From a virus (lineage: Duplodnaviria > Caudoviricetes), in IMG/VR virus record IMGVR_UViG_3300009157_000025, positions 1 to 47,354 of that record: a stretch of 47,354 bases of DNA; one strand, written 5' to 3'. Of the stretch, positions 7,207 through 47,354 are shown in pieces. Numbering within the stretch: position 1 is the first letter of the stretch; the number at the start of each line of letters is the position of its first letter. Below the pieces are notes generated by a model. The model made no database searches. It saw nothing but the letters and a program-made list of their open reading frames with translations, and was not told where the DNA came from. The translations under genes and the position numbers were made by a program.

Positions 7207-8022
7207 ATGCCAAATCTAAGTAACGTTGATCCTTCTATACAATACGTAATGATGAAAGGGGAGCCGGGTACTCGTAAGAGTACTCAAGCTCTCTCATATC
7301 CATTACCTCAGTATTGGTTTAGTTGGGATCGTAAGATGTCAGGTATTCTGGTACCTGCACGTAAATGGGGTATTGACTTATCCCAAGTACAATATGACGA
7401 TTATGATGATTGGAGTAAAGCCAGTCAGAAGCTAGCTTCGCTACAGGTACAGTGTCCATTCAAGACGCTAATATTTGATAGTGTCACGTCATGCGCGGAT
7501 ATGACATTACGACAGACTATGAAAGCTAAGTCTGGTACTACTAGATCATCTGGGGCGAAAGCAGGTAAGCAGATTGCTGGCATTAACGTTAATGAGATTG
7601 AGGACTATAACGCTGAGTCCTCCGCACTTAATGAATTAATCGCATTGACTAAGGATATTAACCAGTTCCATAAAGTTAATATCATTCTGATTGCACACGT
7701 TATGGAAGCTTCGTATCAAAATGTAACTACGGGACAACAACGTGTCTCGCGTACTATTGTTACAGCCGGTAAACGTGTTGCAGCTAAGATTCCCGCATAC
7801 TGTACTGAAGTATATCACTTTGGTATTCTAAAGGGAATGATTGAAGGGCAAGGTGGAGAGTACACAATAGAAACTGAAAATACCGGAGACGATTTCGCGC
7901 GTACTGCACTGGATCTTCCTAGACAGATTAAGTTAGGGGACGATCCTCTGTACACTAAACATATCCTTCCAGCTATTAATAAGCTGAAGGGTAGTCCAGA
8001 AAAACAAGTAAAAACCTTTTAA
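7207..8022 (+). CDS. AAA_24 / Sak4-like recombination ATPase
   Basis: Walker A GEPGTRKST; Walker B LIFDSVT; IILIAH; lies between nuclease and SSB. Confidence 0.85.
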   Translation: MPNLSNVDPSIQYVMMKGEPGTRKSTQALSYPLPQYWFSWDRKMSGILVPARKWGIDLSQVQYDDYDDWSKASQKLASLQVQCPFKTLIFDSVTSCADMTLRQTMKAKSGTTRSSGAKAGKQIAGINVNEIEDYNAESSALNELIALTKDINQFHKVNIILIAHVMEASYQNVTTGQQRVSRTIVTAGKRVAAKIPAYCTEVYHFGILKGMIEGQGGEYTIETENTGDDFARTALDLPRQIKLGDDPLYTKHILPAINKLKGSPEKQVKTF

Positions 8023-8920: not shown

Positions 8921-9196
8921 ATGGCATTAGATGACGTTAAATATCCCTTTGGTGATAAGAGGATTGAAGGTAAGGTAATCGTAGTTAATAAAAAAGGATT
9001 CGGATTCATCAGTACGAAAGATGTTCCGTTTACCCGTGTTTATTTCCACTGGACTAATCTGGTTCCTCAAACAATTAACTTTGCAGAGATTAAGAGGAAT
9101 GATCCAGTAGACTTCATTCTTGAAAAGAAGATTGATGGTACTTATAAAGCTATCAAGATTGATATTCTCGAAAGAGAGAATGTAAAAAGTGAGTGA
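8921..9196 (+). CDS. cold-shock domain protein
   Basis: RNP1 KGFGFI and RNP2 VYFHW motifs. Confidence 0.85.
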   Translation: MALDDVKYPFGDKRIEGKVIVVNKKGFGFISTKDVPFTRVYFHWTNLVPQTINFAEIKRNDPVDFILEKKIDGTYKAIKIDILERENVKSE

Positions 9197-10913
9197 TCAT
9201 TATGTCCCAGGAATGGGATTCAATGGTGCTAAGATTATGTTATTGGGGGAATCTCCGTCCCTAAATGATGTAAAGCGTGGTCGCCCTATGTCCGATACTA
9301 GGGACTTAGATGACCTACTTAAATCAGCGGGAATTATTAAAGGTGATTGCTGGTTAAGTACTGTATTCAAATATCCAGTCCCTCCTAGTCCAACTAAAAA
9401 GAAGATTCCAGCATTCGTACGTGCGGAACAGGCTGGATTAGATATCAGGCAATCTCTATTTGAACTTCAGAATGAGATTAATGATGTTAAGCCCAACGTT
9501 ATTATCGGATTAGGTGGAACAGCCTTTTGGGCATTAACAGGTATCCGTCCTAAGAGTAAGAAAAAGAAGAGTGACTCAGATAAAATAGCATTACCCCAAG
9601 GTGGTATCACAGATTATCGTGGTTCCATTATGATGGGTATGGGGCGTAAGGTTGTATGCACTTATAATCCCGCGCAGTTGAATTGGAACGCGCCTGATAT
9701 TGAGTTTATGGGTCACTGGAATAGACAGATTATTCTAGCTGACCTACGTAGGGGCAGAATGGAATCTGCCACTGCTAATTTTGATTTACCCGTTCGTACT
9801 ATTGAAATCTGCCGTTCACTAGAGGACATTAGACGATTCCGTGGACAGTACATCAATAAAGTAGCTGTAGCCGTAGATATTGAAGCAGGTGGTCATTTCC
9901 TTCCTGCATGTATTGGTTTTGCGTTTACTAGAACTCACGCAATGGTAGTTCCATTGTGGAATATTAATGAGTTTAAGCACATCTCTGATATTGAAATGTG
10001 TATGATCTGGAAAGAAGTAGCTGAGATTCTTTATGAAAAAGAAATCGTGGGCCAGAACTTCAATTACGATCGCGACAAAATTCGAAGAATCGGATTCCGT
10101 ATACGCAAACTCCGATCAGATATCATGCTTAAGTGCCACGCGATCAATCCAGAACTTCCTAAATCGCTCTCTTTCAATGCCTCTATATATACGCGTGAAC
10201 CGTTCTACAAAAACGAAGGAATGTACCACGGTACATTTAACGATTTACTTATCGGATGTGGCAGAGATTGTTGCGTTACGAAAGAAATTGATGAAGCTAC
10301 AGAGACCGAGCTGGACGAAATTGGTCAGCACAATTATTTCTACAATTTCATGATGAAGTGGCCTGAACTCTATCTTAGGATGGAGAATACAGGTCTTAAG
10401 ATTGATTACACTAAGAGAGATCAGCTACTTGAGAAGTATGTAGCCTGGAGTGAAAGACTTCAGTATGAAATGTTCCAGTTAACCGGAGATGATGTTAATG
10501 TTAACTCTCCCAAACAAGTCTCGATTCTCTTATTCGAAGTACTTAAATGTCCACGTCGTAACGGTACGTCTGAGGAAGAACTCACGTCTTTACTTAACTT
10601 ACAATCCTTCACCGATCCGACTAAACGTGCCATTGTTGAGAAAATTCTTGAGAAAAGACGGGTGGATAAATCTATTGGAACTTACCTTATGGCGCTTCCG
10701 GATTACGATGGTCGTATGAAAACTACATACTTCCCTTGTCTGGATACGGGTAGAAGTAAGACGGGTCAACAGGAACCTCCTATCAGACCAGATATTGAGA
10801 TTAGAGATTACGAAGGTAAACTTAAACGAAAGAATTTAGGTACAGCATTCCAGACTATGACCAAACATGGTGATATTGGTCAGGATATTAGGAGTATGTA
10901 TGTGCCCGGTTAA
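9189..10913 (+). CDS. polA: family A DNA polymerase, N-terminal part: UDG-like domain, 3'-5' exonuclease, thumb
   Basis: GESP..ND...GRP (UDG family 4-like), TYNPA; ExoI VDIE, ExoII GQNFNYD; NVNSPKQV; DTGR; ends IRSMYVPG just before motif A. Confidence 0.9.
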   Translation: MSDHYVPGMGFNGAKIMLLGESPSLNDVKRGRPMSDTRDLDDLLKSAGIIKGDCWLSTVFKYPVPPSPTKKKIPAFVRAEQAGLDIRQSLFELQNEINDVKPNVIIGLGGTAFWALTGIRPKSKKKKSDSDKIALPQGGITDYRGSIMMGMGRKVVCTYNPAQLNWNAPDIEFMGHWNRQIILADLRRGRMESATANFDLPVRTIEICRSLEDIRRFRGQYINKVAVAVDIEAGGHFLPACIGFAFTRTHAMVVPLWNINEFKHISDIEMCMIWKEVAEILYEKEIVGQNFNYDRDKIRRIGFRIRKLRSDIMLKCHAINPELPKSLSFNASIYTREPFYKNEGMYHGTFNDLLIGCGRDCCVTKEIDEATETELDEIGQHNYFYNFMMKWPELYLRMENTGLKIDYTKRDQLLEKYVAWSERLQYEMFQLTGDDVNVNSPKQVSILLFEVLKCPRRNGTSEEELTSLLNLQSFTDPTKRAIVEKILEKRRVDKSIGTYLMALPDYDGRMKTTYFPCLDTGRSKTGQQEPPIRPDIEIRDYEGKLKRKNLGTAFQTMTKHGDIGQDIRSMYVPG

Positions 10914-11022
10914 ATATGTTTGTCTTGCATGTAAGAGAAGTTGGACAGCTTCTAACCGAAGATATGGTATGTGCCCTTTTTGTAATAGTAGATTAATTGA
11001 ACATACAGTTCCAGAGGAATAA
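10900..11022 (+). CDS. 40-aa zinc-ribbon protein inside the polA gap
   Basis: Translated by hand: MCPVKYVCLACKRSW...MCPFCNS; AGGAG SD at 10890. Confidence 0.65.
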   Translation: MCPVKYVCLACKRSWTASNRRYGMCPFCNSRLIEHTVPEE

Positions 11023-11240
11023 TGTACAAGAATGAGGAACTTCAAAAGTTATTACGTAAGCTATATGAGGCTAATTATCCCCCTACGTTAGAAGTAACTA
11101 TGGAAGAATTATGTCTAGCTGAAGATGTTATTCTTGAACGGTTAAAAAAGGAAGGAAAGCCTACAATTATAGCCGTCGAGGATAAGGGTGTATGGTTTAA
11201 GGGTGTTCAATTACACTTAAGGGATAATAATGTTGATTGA
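11022..11240 (+). CDS. hypothetical protein inside the polA gap
   Basis: ORF track; TAATG coupling; GAGGA SD. Confidence 0.65.
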   Translation: MYKNEELQKLLRKLYEANYPPTLEVTMEELCLAEDVILERLKKEGKPTIIAVEDKGVWFKGVQLHLRDNNVD

Positions 11241-11409
11241 AGTTTACTGCCGTGACTGTGAAGAAATAGATTCCAATGAAGAAGTGGAACAGGTATTAAT
11301 GCCTACACAGGGGGATCTAATGTTTAATCCTGAAACTAGAAGTCAGGCGCAAAACTATGAATGCCCTAAGTGTAGTGCAATTGTTACCATAGTAATTCAT
11401 CCCAATTAA
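11230..11409 (+). CDS. 59-aa zinc-ribbon protein inside the polA gap
   Basis: Translated by hand: MLIEVYCRDC...YECPKC. Confidence 0.65.
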   Translation: MLIEVYCRDCEEIDSNEEVEQVLMPTQGDLMFNPETRSQAQNYECPKCSAIVTIVIHPN

Positions 11410-11410
11410 G

Positions 11411-11644
11411 GTGATTATGAATACTTGTGTAGCCGATGATGCTAATATTGTTAATATTCAGGGTATCCGTTATGTTACATGGGGTGAAGCCACTTCACAG
11501 TATGAACGTGGGTTAAGCCAGCCGTGGTATGTTACTGTAACATATAAGGGTAATCATCAAACATTCAAGTATCGTACTGAAGATCAGGCACGTGCATTCT
11601 TCAGAATGATTCGTGATGCAATGACGGCCAAAAAGAATGGCTGA
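11411..11644 (+). CDS. hypothetical protein inside the polA gap
   Basis: ORF track; AAGGTG SD; stop overlaps start of the polA C-terminal part. Confidence 0.65.
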   Translation: MIMNTCVADDANIVNIQGIRYVTWGEATSQYERGLSQPWYVTVTYKGNHQTFKYRTEDQARAFFRMIRDAMTAKKNG

Positions 11645-12563
11645 TATTTTTGTACAGGCGGATAGTAGTCAGGCAGAAGCGCGTGTTGTATTCCTTCTGG
11701 CCAATGATGAACAAGCATTAAAGGATATAGATGAACACGACTACCATGCTCTCACTGCTTCTTGGTTTTTCGGTGGGACTGAATTTGATTATTCTAAAAA
11801 AGTATTGGGATATGAACACCCAATTAGATTTGCTGGAAAAACTCTTCGGCACGCAGGCCACTTGGGAGCGGGAAAAGGTCGCGCTACTGTTGAGCTTAAC
11901 ACGCAGGCGCGCAAATATAAAATTCCAATAACGATTACTCCGGGGGAGTCTGATAGAGCACTTAAAATCTTTCATGCTAAACAGCCCCGTATTCAAGGGG
12001 TATTCCAGAATGGAATCGTCGAAGCATTAAAGAAGAATCGTACACTTATTGCCGGTATGCCATTCGGATTCGACTGTGAGACGGGCGGCCGTCGTACATT
12101 TTTTGAGAGGTTTGGAGATGACCTATTCCGAATGGCTTTTAGTTATATACCCCAGCGTAGTGTATCTGATAATACTAAAGCTGCTGGTATTCGAATCCTT
12201 AGAATCATCGAAGATATACAAATTATTATGGAAAGTCATGATGCTCTCCTTTTTTGCTTTGATGACAAATATCTTGATAGTTATTGCCCTGTTATTAAAA
12301 GGGAAATGGAAAGGCCTATAAGTTTTGCTAACTGTAGTCTCCCACGTCGTATGTTGAAGATACCTTGTGATATTGAAATCGGTTACAATTATCAAGACTT
12401 GAATAAATATAAGCAAGTTAAAGCATTAGAGACTCCATTAGAACTTGAGGTAGCTAAGGATACTTCATTCCTAGTAGAGTCAATTTATGGAGATACACAC
12501 CTTGAAAAGAGAATTTCGGAGAGTGCAGAATGGAAGAAAGAGCGGAACTTTCTTATCGACTAG
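11637..12563 (+). CDS. polA: family A DNA polymerase, C-terminal part (motifs A, B, C)
   Basis: ADSSQAEARV (A), RFAGKTLRHAGHLG (B), SYIPQ, ESHDALLF (C), IPCDIEIGYN. Confidence 0.9.
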   Translation: MADIFVQADSSQAEARVVFLLANDEQALKDIDEHDYHALTASWFFGGTEFDYSKKVLGYEHPIRFAGKTLRHAGHLGAGKGRATVELNTQARKYKIPITITPGESDRALKIFHAKQPRIQGVFQNGIVEALKKNRTLIAGMPFGFDCETGGRRTFFERFGDDLFRMAFSYIPQRSVSDNTKAAGIRILRIIEDIQIIMESHDALLFCFDDKYLDSYCPVIKREMERPISFANCSLPRRMLKIPCDIEIGYNYQDLNKYKQVKALETPLELEVAKDTSFLVESIYGDTHLEKRISESAEWKKERNFLID

Positions 12564-16370: not shown

Positions 16371-16571
16371 ATGGCACAATATTACGAATGCGACCGTTGT
16401 AAATCTAAATCAGCAAACTCAGAACATACCACTAATGTAACTCTACCTGAAGATGCAGATAGGTCTAAGTATAATACTTATAAACGAGATTTATGTTCCT
16501 CTTGCTGTAAACAATTAAAAATTTGGATCAGTGATGGAGTACCAGGTGTTGGTAAGGAAACCACTATGTAA
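16371..16571 (+). CDS. zinc-finger protein
   Basis: CDRC...DLCSSC, common in small phage proteins. Confidence 0.7.
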   Translation: MAQYYECDRCKSKSANSEHTTNVTLPEDADRSKYNTYKRDLCSSCCKQLKIWISDGVPGVGKETTM

Positions 16572-17655: not shown

Positions 17656-18111
17656 ATGGATATCAAACAGTTATTCGAAGAATGTCTAATCCTCTCCTAT
17701 AATAAGAGGAAAGACTATACATCAGGCCCGGATAATCATCAGAACTTCAAACGTAGTCAGGAGATTCAATCATGGTTTACTAGGGATGAAGATATACCCT
17801 ATGTAGTCTTGATTGGTACAAAACTAGCGAGATTAGCTTCATTACTATCGGATGATAGAGCTGCTAATTTTGAATCTGTAGAGGATTCATTTAAGGATCT
17901 AATTAATTACTGCGGATTATGGGCTGAACGTAGACTAGAACTCGGCTATAAAGGATCGAAATTTGCAGGAAAGGCGCTAACTAATAGTCAGGTTAATGTA
18001 TTATGTTCGCAAACTCCCGACAGTGGGGCCTACGATCCCAAAAATCTGAAGGAGCCAGAGGACAAGAAAAAGAACTACAAGAACCCTGATCACAATCTTG
18101 ATAGGTTCTGA
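17656..18111 (+). CDS. DUF1599 / nucleotide-modification-associated domain (all-alpha NTP pyrophosphohydrolase-like) protein
   Basis: K..DY...NF; K..RL..L; ESVEDSF.DLINY. Confidence 0.8.
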   Translation: MDIKQLFEECLILSYNKRKDYTSGPDNHQNFKRSQEIQSWFTRDEDIPYVVLIGTKLARLASLLSDDRAANFESVEDSFKDLINYCGLWAERRLELGYKGSKFAGKALTNSQVNVLCSQTPDSGAYDPKNLKEPEDKKKNYKNPDHNLDRF

Positions 18112-18189
18112 CATAGGAATATAAGTCTCTACTAGATAGAGAGCTACACCTACGATAATTAGAACTAGCAATACAGTCAGAATAGGCAT
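18001..18189 (-). CDS. two-TM small membrane protein (Thivi_2564-like; candidate holin)
   Basis: MPILTVLLVLIIVGVALYLVETYIPMSEPIK...LWLLQIFG; GGAG SD. Confidence 0.75.
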   Translation of the reverse strand: MPILTVLLVLIIVGVALYLVETYIPMSEPIKIVIRVLVVLFLVLWLLQIFGIVGPTVGSLRT

Positions 18190-36214: not shown

Positions 36215-37465
36215 TTAGTACCCCGACGGAACAGCCAAGTTATCGATATACGCAGTAGCCGCAGGATTAGTAACGAACGTCTGCATACCAACTACCATGT
36301 AGAAGATATCAGAAGTCATAACACCACCCGAAGCTGCACGCACTTCGAAAATGCTACGGCCATCAGTCTTATAGAAGCCGATGGGTAACACTTCGCCACG
36401 TCCCCACACATCATCCACAACGAAGTCGATGCGCGTCTTATCCCAGTTATACGAGCACTTAACTGGAGCACCCGCCATCTGCATGTTGTCATTGAAGTAC
36501 ATATTCAGGCCTTCTTCTTTAGCCTGTTTATGGATGATCGAAACTAACTGTCCGATCTCTTCATATGCCTGCTTCTGGCAAGGATGCGTCCACGCATTCG
36601 GATTGAAATCATTATCGATACCAGTACGATTACCAATCTTGTTAATAGCAAGACGGGCAAACGGTAACACTAATCCCGAAGAATTAGCATTAACACGGTT
36701 CGACAGGATTTCAGGCGTCGTATTACGCGCGAATCCTAACCACGTACCAGTGGTAGAATTCGAGTGATGATACGGAACACCATACAGCGCAGGTAACGAA
36801 GCAGGTGCAGTAATACCAGCAGTAACAATAACGTCACCAGCAGTAGTAGCAGCAATTTGCGGCGTAACCGTCACAGTCTTGTTTTCAACGTCCCAAGAAG
36901 TAATGGTACCACTACCCTTGTTAGTTGCCAACGTAGTATCAAACACCTGCACCGTCTGACCATAACGCATCAAACGTACACCGAAACCATCGGTAGTACA
37001 TAAGAAAACGCTAGAGCCACCAGCAGGAGTATCTGAAGTAATCGTACCGATTACACCAGTACCCGGCTGCATTAACTGACTGTCTAACTGACGACGTAAT
37101 TCGTCAATAGCAGTAGCAGTAAGACGCCGCACAGCATTAACAATAGCCTTCCGATCATCATCGGTAGACCACTGAACTAACTTCGTGTATTCAATGTTCT
37201 CGCTGACGAATACAGAACTAAGCACAGCCTTATCGAAAGTCGGGCCGCCGCCACGTCCTAAATCGCCACCGTTTGCATCAAAGTACTGGAAGCTACCACC
37301 GGGACGAATTTCTAACGGAATACGCATCTGTCGAGAACTAATCTTCTCAACATCACGCTTCTTAATGTTAGAATAAAACTTATCGTCCCGCTCAAACAAC
37401 ACTCGAACTTTAGGGATAACCCTTTCAAGTTCTAATGCTGTAACATTAGATTCAACAACTGCCAT
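36215..37465 (-). CDS. major capsid protein
   Basis: 416 aa; follows portal and scaffold; HK97-like ending (NPAATAYIDNL); biased codon usage. Confidence 0.85.
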   Translation of the reverse strand: MAVVESNVTALELERVIPKVRVLFERDDKFYSNIKKRDVEKISSRQMRIPLEIRPGGSFQYFDANGGDLGRGGGPTFDKAVLSSVFVSENIEYTKLVQWSTDDDRKAIVNAVRRLTATAIDELRRQLDSQLMQPGTGVIGTITSDTPAGGSSVFLCTTDGFGVRLMRYGQTVQVFDTTLATNKGSGTITSWDVENKTVTVTPQIAATTAGDVIVTAGITAPASLPALYGVPYHHSNSTTGTWLGFARNTTPEILSNRVNANSSGLVLPFARLAINKIGNRTGIDNDFNPNAWTHPCQKQAYEEIGQLVSIIHKQAKEEGLNMYFNDNMQMAGAPVKCSYNWDKTRIDFVVDDVWGRGEVLPIGFYKTDGRSIFEVRAASGGVMTSDIFYMVVGMQTFVTNPAATAYIDNLAVPSGY

Positions 37466-41145: not shown

Positions 41146-41518
41146 CTGCATCTCCTACTTGTAAAACTACGTTTTCAATAATACCCGTTTTACGTTCAAG
41201 CTCTAAGATCGCTTCGTCTTGTTCTTTCTTAGTCTGCTTCAGAATTCTTGCTTTCTCACGATCTTCTGCTTCTAACATCTGCCTGCGTACATTCCATGGA
41301 ACTACCTTTGGTTGAATTACCTCTGGTTCTTCTTCTACTTTATTAAGTGCATTAGTAGCAGAAGGATCATCCAGGATGTAATTAAGGAGACGGTCGCGTT
41401 CGTATCGTAATGAAGTAACTTCAGTTCTTAACTGTTCAACTAATGGATCTATTTCATCTGCACAATGGGGGCAGTGTGGATTTCTAATATCATGAAAGAA
41501 TTTAACAATAAAATTCAT
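41084..41518 (-). CDS. coiled-coil protein with CxxC
   Basis: ORF track; ATGA overlap with terL stop. Confidence 0.65.
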   Translation of the reverse strand: MNFIVKFFHDIRNPHCPHCADEIDPLVEQLRTEVTSLRYERDRLLNYILDDPSATNALNKVEEEPEVIQPKVVPWNVRRQMLEAEDREKARILKQTKKEQDEAILELERKTGIIENVVLQVGDADVQSESIEVNDGTHQQYGKG

Positions 41519-43167
41519 CTAGAACCCCACCTAGAACGATAACGTTTAATACTAACTGGTCCAGGATTATCATCGCCTTCACCTGCGTCCAGTTGTTTCA
41601 TATTGCGATAGAATGCTGTGTAGTCTTGAGTATTCTCTAACCTGTATTGTATAATCTCTCGCTTCTTAGCTTCTACAAATTCTTCCTGAGCGAGATCAAA
41701 ATAACTATCAGCTAAGTCTACAAGATATCTACAGCCATCATAAGGATCGTCACCGTCGTATTCGGCAACATCCTCAATCTTTTTCTTATCGTAACTGGCC
41801 GCTTTAATCGAATCAATAACCGCGGGACAACAATCGAATATCTGTAGCTTCGGAATATTATCTTCTTCGGTCTGTGGATCAAAACTACGAAGATAATTCT
41901 TGTATTCGACAATTCCCTTATTACGTAATAACCACTGTGAATACTGTTCGTTAAATGGTAAAACTTCGTCCTGTGGAATAATCGGCTTCTGCTTCCACCT
42001 TAAATATTCATGAAGGAGAATCTTACCAGCTAATCTTGTACCAGGCGCGTTATTACTTAACCCAACTTCTCTACCTAATGCCGTAGAGATTTGCTGTTGT
42101 ATAGTATGTTCCTGTCCTCTGTCCTGCCCGACAGATTTACAGAAACGAATTAATTTAGGGTCTTCCTTATCAACGAACTGTTTAACGTAGGGTGCCCATT
42201 CTTCAATCTTAACGAGCTTCCAAACCAGTTCTCTGTAGATGTATACCCTACGCTTAGGACTAATAGCAGCAAATCCTACCCAGGTTTGTGCTTTAAATCC
42301 CCAGTCTCCAACTACAATCCTAGGCCACCACGAAGGAATATCAAACGGTGGAATTACGTGAAGTGCATTCTCAGGTTCATCGGGATAATGTTTATCACGG
42401 AACTCATCGAATACCTGTCCAGAGTACGCATTCCAATCGCCATATAACTTAGCCCGCTTCTCAGCTTCGGGTAATGCCATTAACGATTGCATATACCCAG
42501 GATCTAAGTGAGGATTATCGGCCGCGGTTGCGTGTATATAAATACGTTTATTACCGCCGCGACCGATTATAATCTTTCCATCATTAGGAGGTGGAGCAGG
42601 ATCTACTAATCGTTTCCTAACCCAAGTATGTCCAATGCCCCCTGGCATACCTGCTGTACGAATAATCGCAGGAAGATTAGCATTGCTAGTACGAGTACGA
42701 GTGAAGCCAATATATAAATAAATAAATTCGGTGAATGAGGTAAGCTCATCAGGGGAGTAGAGATTGATTTCCATTGAATCATATTTATGGACATCGTTCT
42801 CATCCTCACACTGAGCTAAGAAGATTCTAGCACCGTCATTCGTTCCTCTTTCACGAGCACCAAATTGATCCTCTCTAGGAAATGTCCAACACATATCGGA
42901 CTTATTGAGAGTAGCGCCAAACTTAGGATATAACTGCTGCGAACGAGGAATGATCTCATTTCGTAATTCAGGAAATGTTCGACGCATGAATACCTGTTTA
43001 AAGTCCGGGTATTTATGCCATCCATGAATAAGTCCATAAACTAATAATACGTCTGTCTTGGCTGAACCTGCTCCCCCACCGTATGCGGCTTCCTTTACAG
43101 TTGTAGGTACTGCTAAGAACTTTGCCTGCTTAGGTGTCGGTCGCCATTCACCTTTATTAAAGGACAT
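41515..43167 (-). CDS. terL: terminase large subunit
   Basis: PTPKQ, YGGGAGSAKT, RRTFPEL, PDEL, MPGGIGH.W, DNPHL, GDWG, DDPYD. Confidence 0.95.
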   Translation of the reverse strand: MSFNKGEWRPTPKQAKFLAVPTTVKEAAYGGGAGSAKTDVLLVYGLIHGWHKYPDFKQVFMRRTFPELRNEIIPRSQQLYPKFGATLNKSDMCWTFPREDQFGARERGTNDGARIFLAQCEDENDVHKYDSMEINLYSPDELTSFTEFIYLYIGFTRTRTSNANLPAIIRTAGMPGGIGHTWVRKRLVDPAPPPNDGKIIIGRGGNKRIYIHATAADNPHLDPGYMQSLMALPEAEKRAKLYGDWNAYSGQVFDEFRDKHYPDEPENALHVIPPFDIPSWWPRIVVGDWGFKAQTWVGFAAISPKRRVYIYRELVWKLVKIEEWAPYVKQFVDKEDPKLIRFCKSVGQDRGQEHTIQQQISTALGREVGLSNNAPGTRLAGKILLHEYLRWKQKPIIPQDEVLPFNEQYSQWLLRNKGIVEYKNYLRSFDPQTEEDNIPKLQIFDCCPAVIDSIKAASYDKKKIEDVAEYDGDDPYDGCRYLVDLADSYFDLAQEEFVEAKKREIIQYRLENTQDYTAFYRNMKQLDAGEGDDNPGPVSIKRYRSRWGSR

Positions 43168-43703: not shown

Positions 43704-44279
43704 TTATTCTAGGGCTTCAACTGTTTCAAAGGAGGATTCTTTAGCGAAACCAGGATTGTACATTACAATCGAAGGTCCATTAATATTAACACCTGTATCT
43801 TTACGTTCAGACGCAGGTTCCATATCCTTAATGATACCACTCATAGTCTTAGCTACTAACGCCAGGTCTGTTAACTTGGCATCCATGAGTTTATCTTCCG
43901 TAATATTCTCAAACGTCTTATTGAGAATCTTAGTAGCCTTCTTAGTAATCCTATCCTTGGATTGTCTAAGAGCGGAAGCTAATTCTTTATTGGGCTTGTC
44001 GTAGGTGCTTGTGGAAGTAGCACCATTAGAATATGCAGAAACTGAGGATGGACTTACATCGAACATCTTAGCGAATTGCGTAGCACTACGGCGACCGTTT
44101 TGTACTTTATCATCCGCTATCAATGCACGTAATGAGTCAGGTACATTATTGTCACCTTCACTACGGCCAGGTCTAGGAATATCTATAACCTGTGCGGGTT
44201 TTAATTCAGGTACAGGGGATCGTTCTAAACGCTCTACCTCTGTATTAAATTCTTCATCTGATACAATTCCAATAGGCAT
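43704..44279 (-). CDS. probable terminase small subunit (HTH)
   Basis: ATQFAKMFDVSPSSVSAY HTH; first gene of the late operon. Confidence 0.6.
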   Translation of the reverse strand: MPIGIVSDEEFNTEVERLERSPVPELKPAQVIDIPRPGRSEGDNNVPDSLRALIADDKVQNGRRSATQFAKMFDVSPSSVSAYSNGATSTSTYDKPNKELASALRQSKDRITKKATKILNKTFENITEDKLMDAKLTDLALVAKTMSGIIKDMEPASERKDTGVNINGPSIVMYNPGFAKESSFETVEALE

Positions 44280-44300
44280 ATATACACCAAAGACTTGTAA

Positions 44301-44329
44301 AGCTTATCATACTTACTTCGGGGTGTCAA
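44301..44329 (-). promoter_or_regulatory. sigma70-type promoter for the morphogenesis operon
   Basis: Minus strand TTGACA-17 nt-(TGA)TAAGCT. Confidence 0.75.
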
Positions 44330-44387
44330 CTGTCCCCTTTTTGACACTCCCCGTTAAGTCCTTCGGAATGAATGACTTGGGGAACCG

Positions 44388-44416
44388 TTGACAAACGGAT
44401 CAGTGTGTGTTACAAT
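44388..44416 (+). promoter_or_regulatory. sigma70-type promoter, divergent from the late promoter
   Basis: TTGACA-17 nt-(TGT)TACAAT. Confidence 0.85.
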
Positions 44417-44452
44417 CCGTTGACACCGTTCTCAATATAAGGAGTAGTATGT

Positions 44453-44611
44453 ATGAGTAAGTGGCAGATGATTAAATGTTTCTTCGGATTCCACACACCT
44501 GAAGTAGTTGGATATCCCTGTACTACAAATACAGAAGGGTGGTTAAGATATGTTGAATGTGAATATTGTGGTGTCTATTTAAGGGAGCATACAGAAGATG
44601 AACATAAGTGA
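44453..44611 (+). CDS. 52-aa Cys/His protein
   Basis: Translated by hand: KCFFGFH...CEYCG; AAGGAG SD. Confidence 0.6.
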   Translation: MSKWQMIKCFFGFHTPEVVGYPCTTNTEGWLRYVECEYCGVYLREHTEDEHK

Positions 44612-44930
44612 TATCATTTATGAATGCCAGGTTAAACCTAACACTTATGGATTAATCACCAGGAGAACATGGAAGGAATTAAAAACTGTATTTGATACAC
44701 ATGTTAAACTGTCAGGCGCGTCTAGGATTAGTAAGGTAGAATCAGTCTATCACTATGCCAATGGAAGTAAGATATACTTCAGTACAATACATTGCCTTAG
44801 GAATATAGAGAGACATCTGGGAATGTATTATGACTTTATGGATATAGATTATATTATGCCTAAACATGGAATGGAACTGCTAAAGAGGATTAGACCAGAT
44901 GACATCCGCAAAATACTCAAGGATCTGTAA
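44598..44930 (+). CDS. stand-alone fragment resembling a terminase ATPase subdomain
   Basis: LITRRTWKEL...Y.NGSKIYF...G..YDF..ID; no Walker A; GGGAG SD. Confidence 0.65.
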   Translation: MNISDIIYECQVKPNTYGLITRRTWKELKTVFDTHVKLSGASRISKVESVYHYANGSKIYFSTIHCLRNIERHLGMYYDFMDIDYIMPKHGMELLKRIRPDDIRKILKDL

Positions 44931-45042
44931 GGAATGTGGAACTTCAATCAGCACCAATCGCAAAAACCAACGTTTTTGCACGGAGAAGTGTAGGAATAAA
45001 CATTGGGTAAAGGAGAATCCGAGGATTAAACGTGAAGTATAA
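44899..45042 (+). CDS. 47-aa zinc-finger protein
   Basis: Translated by hand: CKECG...FCTEKCR; GAGGA SD. Confidence 0.6.
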   Translation: MTSAKYSRICKECGTSISTNRKNQRFCTEKCRNKHWVKENPRIKREV

Positions 45043-45259
45043 GTATGGTATATGTAAGGAGTGTAAAACAAAGAGACGAATCTTTTATTTAGGATCTAGA
45101 GGGGACTATCGTAAATATAGATGTTCAAAGGGTCATACCTGGGAAGTGGAGATATTAGGAACTGAAAAGATAGCAGGAATAATGCAGGAGGTTATGCTCA
45201 AACATATAAAGAACATATTTGAAAGGGATGATACTTTCTATAAAAATCTAAAAAAGTAA
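45032..45259 (+). CDS. zinc-ribbon protein ending in a copy of the capsid N-terminal motif
   Basis: CKEC...CSKGH; C-terminus FERDDTFYKNLKK; GAGGA SD. Confidence 0.7.
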   Translation: MKYKYGICKECKTKRRIFYLGSRGDYRKYRCSKGHTWEVEILGTEKIAGIMQEVMLKHIKNIFERDDTFYKNLKK

Positions 45260-45495
45260 CTAAGTATGGGACCATAATATGGGACCCAATTCTAAATATT
45301 TTAGAGAGGCACACGATTGATGCCACCCCCAGCGAACCTTTTTTAAGCATGCTTCATTTTAGGGGGTATACCCTACCCACTACCTAGTAAAACTAACAGG
45401 TCAAAAACTAGTAGTTTTGACAGCTATACAAGCGTAGGATACTCCTGTATGATGTATCCATAAGTTAGTTAACACGTTATTAGTGAGGTGCCGAT

Positions 45496-45609
45496 ATGAA
45501 GCTTAGCAAGACTGTTAGCACGTTCGAGATGATGCTGATGTATATCAGTGAAGGGTATCCCGAAATGGCGCGTATCTACACTATCAAATTGGTGCGCTCA
45601 TGCCGGTAA
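45496..45609 (+). CDS. 37-aa hypothetical protein
   Basis: Translated by hand; GAGGTG SD. Confidence 0.5.
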   Translation: MKLSKTVSTFEMMLMYISEGYPEMARIYTIKLVRSCR

Positions 45610-45815
45610 AAAAGCTGTATAGCCTGTATCAGCGTAGACACGGCGAAACGCGATGGACCCGTATCAGTGCATCATCCTATCATAAGGATATTGCTATCAG
45701 GGTATTTCAATCGCGCCTGATAGATGCTGCGCTCGGCGGGTATCGTGATAGTTGCGATAACCTTTTGGAACTGCGCCTGCGCCCGATTAAACTGGAGTTG
45801 CCTGAAGCGAAGTAA
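45600..45815 (+). CDS. hypothetical protein
   Basis: ORF track. Confidence 0.6.
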   Translation: MPVKKLYSLYQRRHGETRWTRISASSYHKDIAIRVFQSRLIDAALGGYRDSCDNLLELRLRPIKLELPEAK

Positions 45816-45827
45816 CGAAATTGGTTG

Positions 45828-45873
45828 TTGACATCTGCCCCCGACTATGATACACTTCTTAAGTCGGGGGCAG
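45828..45873 (+). promoter_or_regulatory. sigma70-type promoter whose -10 lies in the loop of a perfect 12-bp inverted repeat
   Basis: TTGACA 45828-45833, 17 nt, TACACT 45851-45856; CTGCCCCCGACT/AGTCGGGGGCAG. Confidence 0.75.
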
Positions 45874-45955
45874 TTGAGAGTGACCGACAAACGAGCGAGA
45901 ATGACCTGTTTCGGGGACATCGGAAACGACGGTAATTTACTAATTAGGAGAGTGT

Positions 45956-46312
45956 ATGAAGACTGAAAAGTTTAGCGGCAAGATGGAGTCGGCGTATGGT
46001 AAGGTTCTGCCTACTCCTATCCCTTTCTCCGGCTCGTTTGAAGCTTTGGAGAATATCGACGAAGTTAAGACGGCAAACGAAGTGCCAGACGATAAAGAAG
46101 TTGTGGCATGGGCCAATGGCAAGCGGAAGGCTAGCGAGCGCCAGAAGGCTATGAATGCTGCGCTGGAAGCTGCCGGAATCTCTAAGCCTACGCTGGAAGA
46201 TCCTCAGGTTCAGTTGCTTCAGATTATCAAGGCGCTCCGTGCATCGGGACGCTCTGAAGAGGATGCTATTGCGCTGGCGGAGACTACGCTCGGCGTTAAG
46301 TATCAGTCCTAG
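45956..46312 (+). CDS. hypothetical protein, probably highly expressed
   Basis: AGGAG SD; own promoter and downstream hairpins; GC-richer codons. Confidence 0.75.
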   Translation: MKTEKFSGKMESAYGKVLPTPIPFSGSFEALENIDEVKTANEVPDDKEVVAWANGKRKASERQKAMNAALEAAGISKPTLEDPQVQLLQIIKALRASGRSEEDAIALAETTLGVKYQS

Positions 46313-46351
46313 ATAATCCTCGTTAGCCTAAGTAGCTAACTGGATTAGGAT

Positions 46352-46384
46352 GGGGGAGAGACTGCAAATCTCCCCTATTCTTTT
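46352..46384 (+). terminator. probable intrinsic terminator
   Basis: GGGGAGA...TCTCCCC stem followed by TATTCTTTT. Confidence 0.5.
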
Positions 46385-46412
46385 GCTCAAAATTCTCGAT
46401 AGGATACTTTTT

Positions 46413-46793
46413 ATGGCGTATACTCTGCAAGGAACTAAAGATTGTGCTGTAGTTTCTATCTGTAACTTTACAGGTAAATCCTATGATGAAGTTTTAGCTG
46501 CGGGGGAGATTATTACTCCTAATTTTAGGACTGCGGTTAGAATACGTGGCACGTATCATCACGAAGTTACTTTCATCCTTGCACACTTAACTAAACGTGC
46601 ATGGACTGAGACTACTCCGCGCAGGGGGCAAGATAAATTAAACGGTATTCTTAGCTGGCATAAACCGGGATATGCTAAGGGACATATGACCGCATGTATT
46701 AATGGTCATGTATTCGATACTAATGGCAAAACTTGGCCGATTGAAGAATATCGTAGGGTATATAACTTCTGTCTTAGAAAGGTGTGGAAATGA
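46413..46793 (+). CDS. small papain/C39-peptidase-like fold protein (start MAYTLQ)
   Basis: DCAV.SI...G.SY..V; GH.TA.ING...DT (Cys-His-Asp). Confidence 0.6.
   Translation: MAYTLQGTKDCAVVSICNFTGKSYDEVLAAGEIITPNFRTAVRIRGTYHHEVTFILAHLTKRAWTETTPRRGQDKLNGILSWHKPGYAKGHMTACINGHVFDTNGKTWPIEEYRRVYNFCLRKVWK

Positions 46794-46963: not shown

Positions 46964-47354
<391 letters not shown>

Follow-up and report, generated by a model that had tools for sequence, protein, structure and literature searches.

Introduction

Bacteria sense the phage capsid and terminase directly, and how a phage counters the sensing of parts that it cannot change is an open question. According to the available portions of the two reports, the terminase ATPase domain alone suffices to trigger Avs2 and Upx (PMC13601566), and Lit and CapRel recognize the major capsid protein (MCP) via short motifs (PMC13581612). 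The small stand-alone terminase-like proteins vs.8 of T4, Ksap1 and Ksap2 activate Avs2; in the same portion of PMC13601566, the authors suggest that stand-alone terminase-like proteins may be anti-defense factors and treat their role as an open question. In 80alpha, the N-arm helix of the HK97-fold capsid protein contacts the scaffolding protein, and in size redirection by SaPI1 the competitor, CpmB, is a rival scaffold (PMC5644958). Mimic-type anti-defense proteins (DNA mimics, Ocr) are small accessory proteins that imitate the ligand of a defense system; those in the accessible part of 10.1101/2025.06.06.658234 imitate DNA or an antitoxin, and none there imitates a structural piece of the phage itself. 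Mini-genes bearing a capsid piece were described nowhere in a literature search that covered few subscription papers, and they were absent from the accessible parts of that anti-defense catalogue and of a 2026 editorial (PMC13728456) and from a term search of PMC11564622.

Here, we analyzed four small ORFs (ORF1 to ORF4) of an uncultivated phage. The window, which is the whole stretch of 47,354 nucleotides under analysis (IMG/VR record IMGVR_UViG_3300009157_000025), is a near-complete phage genome of ~47 kb. As judged from sequence, the novelty lies in the gene class formed by ORF4 and its sisters, and ORF2 alone is a further vs.8/Ksap-like protein.

Results

Layout of the locus

The plus-strand arm of the window holds helicase, exonuclease, polymerase and primase-like genes, named by their motifs, and the minus-strand arm holds the packaging and virion genes. 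The four-ORF unit opens the plus-strand arm, divergently from the operon headed by a putative terS, homologues of which were found in 26 of 34 related genomes (Table 1). Most of the unit, including ORF4, is covered by near-identical short contigs of other samples, in which 0 letters differ. A host scan of the genomes gave matches only in two short metagenome-bin contigs (Nitrosotalea, Acidobacteriota), too little to fix the host.

The initial annotation had read the unit as a decoy operon driven by one consensus promoter and placed back-to-back with the late promoter of the structural genes. The promoter candidate and the four same-strand ORFs were borne out: successive ORFs overlap by 14, 32 and 11 nt, AGGAG, GGAG or GAGG stands ahead of each, and the promoter candidate is the top one of 10 matches in 44000-46500, a region in which shuffles yield 6.4 matches of any grade. 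From this arrangement, we infer that ORF1 to ORF4 would be expressed from the single promoter at 44388. The divergent promoter candidate is present as well, and several relatives carry similar sites upstream of terS. Its lateness was not supported because this candidate is itself sigma70-like.

Table 1. Positions of the features discussed in the text (window coordinates unless a contig or genome is named).
Feature	Position	Strand	Basis
TerL	41515-43167	minus-strand arm	phrog_979, E 3.7e-35
MCP (major capsid protein)	36215-37465	minus-strand arm	phrog_14242, E 1.8e-8; NF033394, E 5.4e-4, below cut-off
Putative terS, 191 aa, heads divergent operon	43704-44279	-	position; weak HTH match only
Sigma70-type promoter candidate, TTGACA-17-(TG)TACAAT	44388-44416	+	11/12 consensus matches
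Divergent sigma70-like promoter candidate, TTGACA-17-(TG)TAAGCT, facing packaging/structural operon	44301-44329	-	9/12 consensus matches
ORF1, 52-aa Cys/His protein	44453-44611	+	no structural piece or relative detected
ORF2, 110-aa stand-alone terminase ATPase core	44598-44930	+	phrog_979; hhalign; Atlas model
ORF3, 47-aa C2-C2 Zn-finger protein	44899-45042	+	phrog_2308, E 2.9e-7
ORF4, 75-aa Zn-ribbon-like carrier (CxxC...CxKGH) plus MCP N-terminal helix piece	45032-45259	+	27-protein family
ORF4 capsid-like cargo, residues 46-75, FERDDxFY motif	45167-45256	+	match to MCP 7-36
MCP gene segment matching ORF4, residues 7-36, N-terminal helix	37358-37447	-	
TerL gene segment matching ORF2, residues 54-144	42736-43008	-	hhalign
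Tat-like mosaic ORF directly upstream of terS	L040 1462-1773		MCP 225-259 plus N-helix-like tail
Tat-like mosaic ORF directly upstream of terS	L035 212-514		TerL 5-36 (terminase N-terminal/Walker A piece)
Third-mosaic-family gene	L234 15221-15541 (G004)		
Third-mosaic-family gene	G015 17840-18166		
Third-mosaic-family gene	G024 7217-7549		

In the intergenic region, 44280-44450 contains four TTGACA boxes (44329 on the minus strand; 44343, 44388 and 44420 on the plus strand), some of which could be operator sites for a divergent switch, and a hairpin at 44320-44336 covers the -35 element of the terS-side promoter candidate.

ORF4 joins a capsid piece to a Zn-ribbon-like carrier

The capsid motif proposed for ORF4 is real. 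Residues 46-75 matched MCP residues 7-36 with a BLAST E of 1e-4 and a profile-profile probability of 96.6%, and the score was reached by 0 of 1000 pairwise shuffles and 0 of 200 proteome-wide shuffles. ORF4 holds this segment of the MCP only and is without the full P- and A-domains of an HK97-fold MCP. Scanning 18 of the 64 parts of the viral contig set for FERDDxFY returned 119 matches, namely 111 MCP genes, 1 cut MCP and 7 small ORFs. Three of the small ORFs (two of them identical) began with the CxxC...CxKGH pattern of ORF4, and the other four carried an unrelated RRxFL Tat-like leader.

A profile built from the three Zn-type proteins identified 27 proteins of 75-93 aa among 38 candidates, the window's ORF4 included. 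Residues C8, C11, R15, C31, K33, G34, H35, F63 and F69 are invariant in this family, the hydrophobic residues I47, F63, F69 and L73 and the charged E-R-D-D of the motif are kept, and all 27 aligned rows stop 12-16 residues past the first Phe of the motif. Conservation is as high in the Zn carrier as in the cargo, and every clear carrier match bore cargo. The predicted model of ORF4 consists of four strands followed by a helix at residues 44-73 (pLDDT 78), and it matched no PDB fold at E 0.001. The MCP model, of low confidence (pTM 0.29) and used for helix positions only, places a helix at residues 6-26; its best viral match is a major capsid protein. A PDB search with the MCP profile found no sequence relatives, and no solved structure matches the MCP by sequence.

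dN/dS values were computed for 25 of 28 pairs of Zn-type genes. The non-identical pairs have dN values of 0.36-0.70, with dS either saturated or no lower than 1.3. Synonymous sites are likewise saturated between ORF4 and the window's own MCP gene, and ORF4 is therefore not a recent copy. Across 10 mini-genes, the MCP of the same genome ranked between 8 and 31 of 35 in similarity to the mini-gene piece, which led us to reject co-evolution of the pieces with their own MCP; they keep the motif of the whole family and not the sequence of their own genome. The self-mimicry put forward initially thus stands at the level of the family and falls at the level of the genome's own capsid protein. The substitution patterns mark the ORF4 family as an old one, under selection as protein and without renewal from the capsid gene of the same genome.

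ORF2 is a terminase ATPase core lacking catalytic motifs

ORF2 alone matched phrog_979 with an E of 0.0011. Three relatives (44-65% identity, 99-110 aa) were found among 1.84 billion representatives, and 4 of 4 family members matched phrog_979 (best E 1.7e-10). hhalign aligned ORF2 residues 14-88 with TerL 54-144 (80%, E 1.4e-5), and nine control families reached at most 2.6% against ORF2 by profile comparison. In the Atlas, the predicted ORF2 model superposed on terminase N-domains, the ATPase core fold, with a TM of 0.77-0.79; 29 of its 30 feature matches lie in unnamed clusters, and the top three are 106-115 aa long. Together with the shuffle and reversed controls, the profile and predicted-structure matches of ORF2 uphold the view that two structural fragments in this unit are beyond chance.

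The Walker A motif (TerL residues 31-38) lies outside the aligned part of TerL and is absent from ORF2, and the position of the Walker B Glu is occupied by Y, S, S and Q in the four family members (Tyr in ORF2 itself). Because of these two features, ORF2 is predicted to be inactive. Its resemblance is to the terminase family; a significant match to the phage's own TerL was not confirmed. In the pairwise comparison with the window's TerL, 774 of 1000 shuffles scored as well, and an HMM of the own TerL family did not detect ORF2. By these comparisons, ORF2 is old and not a recent self-copy. It is a free-standing small ORF in a genome with an intact TerL gene.

The three relatives of ORF2 sit on contigs of 1.0-4.9 kb. 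Viral scans for further relatives found none (59 candidate stretches, 0 confirmed), a pattern scan of viral sequences gave one match, a candidate only, in a 409-kb contig, and a PDB search with the ORF2 profile found no sequence relatives.

Large terminases (phrog_979; Pfam Terminase_6N/Terminase_3) resemble ORF2 in profile and predicted fold over TerL 54-144; unlike them, ORF2 has 110 aa and is without P-loop, nuclease domain and catalytic Glu, the full TerL being encoded separately. ORF2 is small, free-standing and lineage-restricted, with a terminase ATPase fold, as are vs.8 and Ksap1/Ksap2 in the portion of PMC13601566 that describes them. Those proteins activate Avs2, and ORF2 is likened to them by its predicted fold. 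Unlike ORF2, vs.8 keeps Walker A and B, and the likeness is drawn by description, not by sequence.

A family of 78-94 aa with a 'KPIAV...RIR' signature occurs in 5 of the 34 relatives (L304 4405-4638 in G027; G012, G013, G020 and G023) and at L008 3867-4115, where the gene occupies the terS-divergent slot. We did not count it as a terminase core, since its Atlas TM of ~0.6 is under our naming bar and neither hhalign nor PHROGs shows the resemblance. MCP pieces accompany it in 3 of 5 genomes, as against 8 of the 29 others (p 0.30).

No structural piece was detected in ORF1 or ORF3

ORF1 may resemble DUF1660-type prophage proteins, a likeness that a Pfam search of ORF1 did not find; it matched no protein family and had no relative in the 34 genomes. 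ORF3 belongs to a common phage type of Zn finger, and the window encodes a paralogue of it at 16531. Relatives of ORF3 lie no more than 700 bp from terS in G001 and G004 and, as a weak match, in G033; it is the only one of the four genes that recurs at this locus. No structural-protein piece was detected in either ORF.

Capsid-piece genes recur in relatives at other positions

We surveyed 34 near-complete related genomes, which are not independent samples and one of which (G013) was picked for its mini-gene. Profiles of 13 conserved families were run against the 4644 small ORFs outside large genes, and reversed ORFs served as the control. The MCP profile matched 12 of the 4644 at iE <0.05 (11 in relatives) and no reversed ORF. 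For the other 12 families, we obtained 6 genes cut by a contig end, 3 weak Cys-rich matches and 1 weak unexplained match. The TerL and polymerase profiles had 0 matches among the 4644 small ORFs, and the survey yielded no convincing replication-gene piece. When the ORF4 profile was added, MCP-piece genes were present in 11 of 34 relatives, nine of them of the N-helix type; in the remaining 23, none was detected. ORF1 and ORF2 are absent from all 34 genomes.

At least four different MCP segments have been captured (about residues 3-59, 63-72, 225-268 and 362-413). The MCP-piece genes come with two main carriers, a Zn ribbon and a Tat-like leader, which are unrelated and interchangeable and both bear the capsid helix. 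All 16 MCP-piece genes, counting that of the window, share the strand of the polymerase, as against a background of 998/1763; the p-value of this bias is overstated because the genomes are related. Those of the relatives are placed within the replication arm. In additional loci, such genes often directly follow a cold-shock-like gene, a slot shared by the Zn-type and the Tat-type genes. The window's gene is 753 bp from terS, and 0 of 15 in the near-complete relatives are near terS.

The initial annotation expected structural fragments to recur at this locus in related genomes. Capsid pieces do recur, as intact genes under purifying selection; they do so elsewhere. In 28 related loci, the sequence upstream of terS extends for 1.2 kb or more; an MCP piece was present there in one of them (L040) and lay on the terS strand, opposite to the arrangement in the window (in the reversed control there were two matches, both on one charged ORF). 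A conserved decoy operon divergent from terS is not supported. The four-gene operon is a local arrangement and not a dedicated operon, and the best explanation is that ORF4 and ORF2 are separate accessory genes that happen to occupy one slot in this genome, next to the unrelated ORF1 and ORF3. The MCP-piece gene class itself is robust; it is conserved, patchy, mobile and accessory-like.

Tat-like carriers and mosaic ORFs

Of the 15 Tat-like ORFs in the loci, several of which had been obtained through the capsid motif, 13 bore a piece (12 MCP, 1 TerL). In an independent test with the Tat-like carrier motif alone, 27 of 44 distinct ORFs carried an MCP piece and reversed sequences gave 0; among 16 other carrier-motif ORFs tested, 3 weakly matched the P22-type coat family (E 0.003-0.02). 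For Tat-type genes, 45 pairs were compared, and dN/dS was 0.15-0.21 in the closest four. Directly upstream of terS, two related loci contain Tat-like mosaic ORFs that bear capsid and terminase pieces on one chain (Table 1); further pieces in them were seen by eye only.

The Tat-like carrier (RRxFL...LLWVPGxKxIF) was also seen with other cargo in other phage groups (L330-L384). A third mosaic family combines the MCP motif FDPNGGDLGR with MCP residues 362-393, and G004 contains three different MCP-piece genes.

Discussion

Overall, ORF4 is an intact, diverged piece of a capsid protein and ORF2 one of a terminase ATPase; both resemble phage proteins of the kinds that are sensed, MCP and TerL. We propose, tentatively and at somewhat less than an even chance, that they are accessory genes supplying decoys to host proteins that recognize short features of the capsid or terminase. 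The sigma70-type promoter would express the unit before the structural genes, ORF4 and ORF2 would bind a host sensor or protease that reads such features, and the occupied host proteins would not fire, which would protect the phage. We favor decoys because several unrelated segments have been captured, because the pieces follow the family motif over the cognate partner, and because their turnover is accessory-like. An extension of this reading, which is possible and which we hold with greater reserve, is a modular self-epitope system in which interchangeable carriers would show swappable capsid and terminase segments, in some cases more than one per chain, and saturate the sensors before the real proteins are synthesized. 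The variety of conserved segments may fit epitope display better than it fits a single assembly contact. ORF2 falls within the ATPase domain read by Avs2 and Upx, and the ORF4 helix differs from the A-domain bound by Avs7, Avs8 and Avs10. The described parts of PMC13581612, in which these three bind the folded MCP A-domain and no short N-terminal helix, speak against decoys, as does the toxicity of Ksap1, Ksap2 and T4 vs.8 together with Avs2, which means that they trigger it (PMC13601566, same portion as above). Moreover, no pieces of polymerases or helicases, which Avs families sense as well, turned up in the survey. The Tat-like leader may mean export or membrane tethering, which would be awkward for decoys acting in the cytoplasm.

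Alternatively, the pieces may interfere with assembly, a reading that we regard as rather unlikely. The free N-arm helix of ORF4 would tie up the scaffold or dock on the capsid, ORF2 would be a dead motor subunit, and the result would be a delay of the phage's own head assembly or a block on co-infecting relatives or satellites. The tail of ORF4 copies the family's MCP N-terminal helix, and from its position and the low-confidence model it might be the equivalent of the element that binds the scaffold in 80alpha; the preserved hydrophobic residues and the restriction of the copied proteins to head and packaging are in keeping with this, and with both promoters sigma70-like, a post-transcriptional brake on assembly is conceivable. 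It would differ from the rival scaffold CpmB, as ORF4 presents the capsid piece itself on a Zn ribbon. Against interference, the sequences of the pieces do not follow that of the cognate MCP, most of the surveyed relatives have no detected piece, ORF2 is distant from its own TerL, and no single interface would suit the mosaic chains in which terminase pieces are combined with capsid pieces (L035, L040). A complex prediction for scaffold residues 78-410 with ORF4 gave no answer (score 0.00) and was counted neither way.

We consider it improbable that domains were merely reused, with no mimicry involved; a capsid helix and a terminase core would then serve as folding or oligomerization units in unrelated roles, for example in a Zn-ribbon regulator with a dimerizing tail. 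The equal conservation of Zn carrier and cargo, the cargo on all clear carrier matches, the abundance of stand-alone ORF2-like proteins in the Atlas and the ordinary nature of the ORF3 Zn finger agree with such reuse. However, an unrelated carrier bears the same cargo in the same slot after the cold-shock-like gene, the charged E-R-D-D is kept, and several MCP segments but none from replication genes have been captured. Finally, chance similarity or decaying recombination debris is very improbable and, for ORF4, largely refuted: the matches are short, no pairwise match links ORF2 to its own TerL and the unit is AT-richer than the genome (0.356 vs 0.406), but the shuffle and reversed controls, the shared termination of 27 homologues, a dN far below dS and the saturation of synonymous sites relative to the own MCP all contradict it.

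Whatever the mechanism, the carrier-plus-capsid-piece family supplies a short list of testable proteins and marks capsid segments that are important to a partner, and ORF2 bears on the question of what stand-alone terminase-like proteins such as vs.8 and Ksap do. If the self-epitope reading is true, the segments that have been captured would amount to a map of what bacterial immune systems recognize in this phage family.

Several further features of the window were noted. The polymerase is split into two ORFs of 574 and 308 aa with small ORFs between them (9189-12563), as compared with a single ORF of ~820-890 aa in the relatives, and the contig ends in long stretches of T and of A (47070-47354), probably an assembly artefact. 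Between ORF4 and the next genes, 45400-45421 forms a near-perfect inverted repeat, which the terminator scan did not call. A second strong promoter-like site is followed by a 118-aa gene (45828-46312), relatives of which recur near terS on the same arm.
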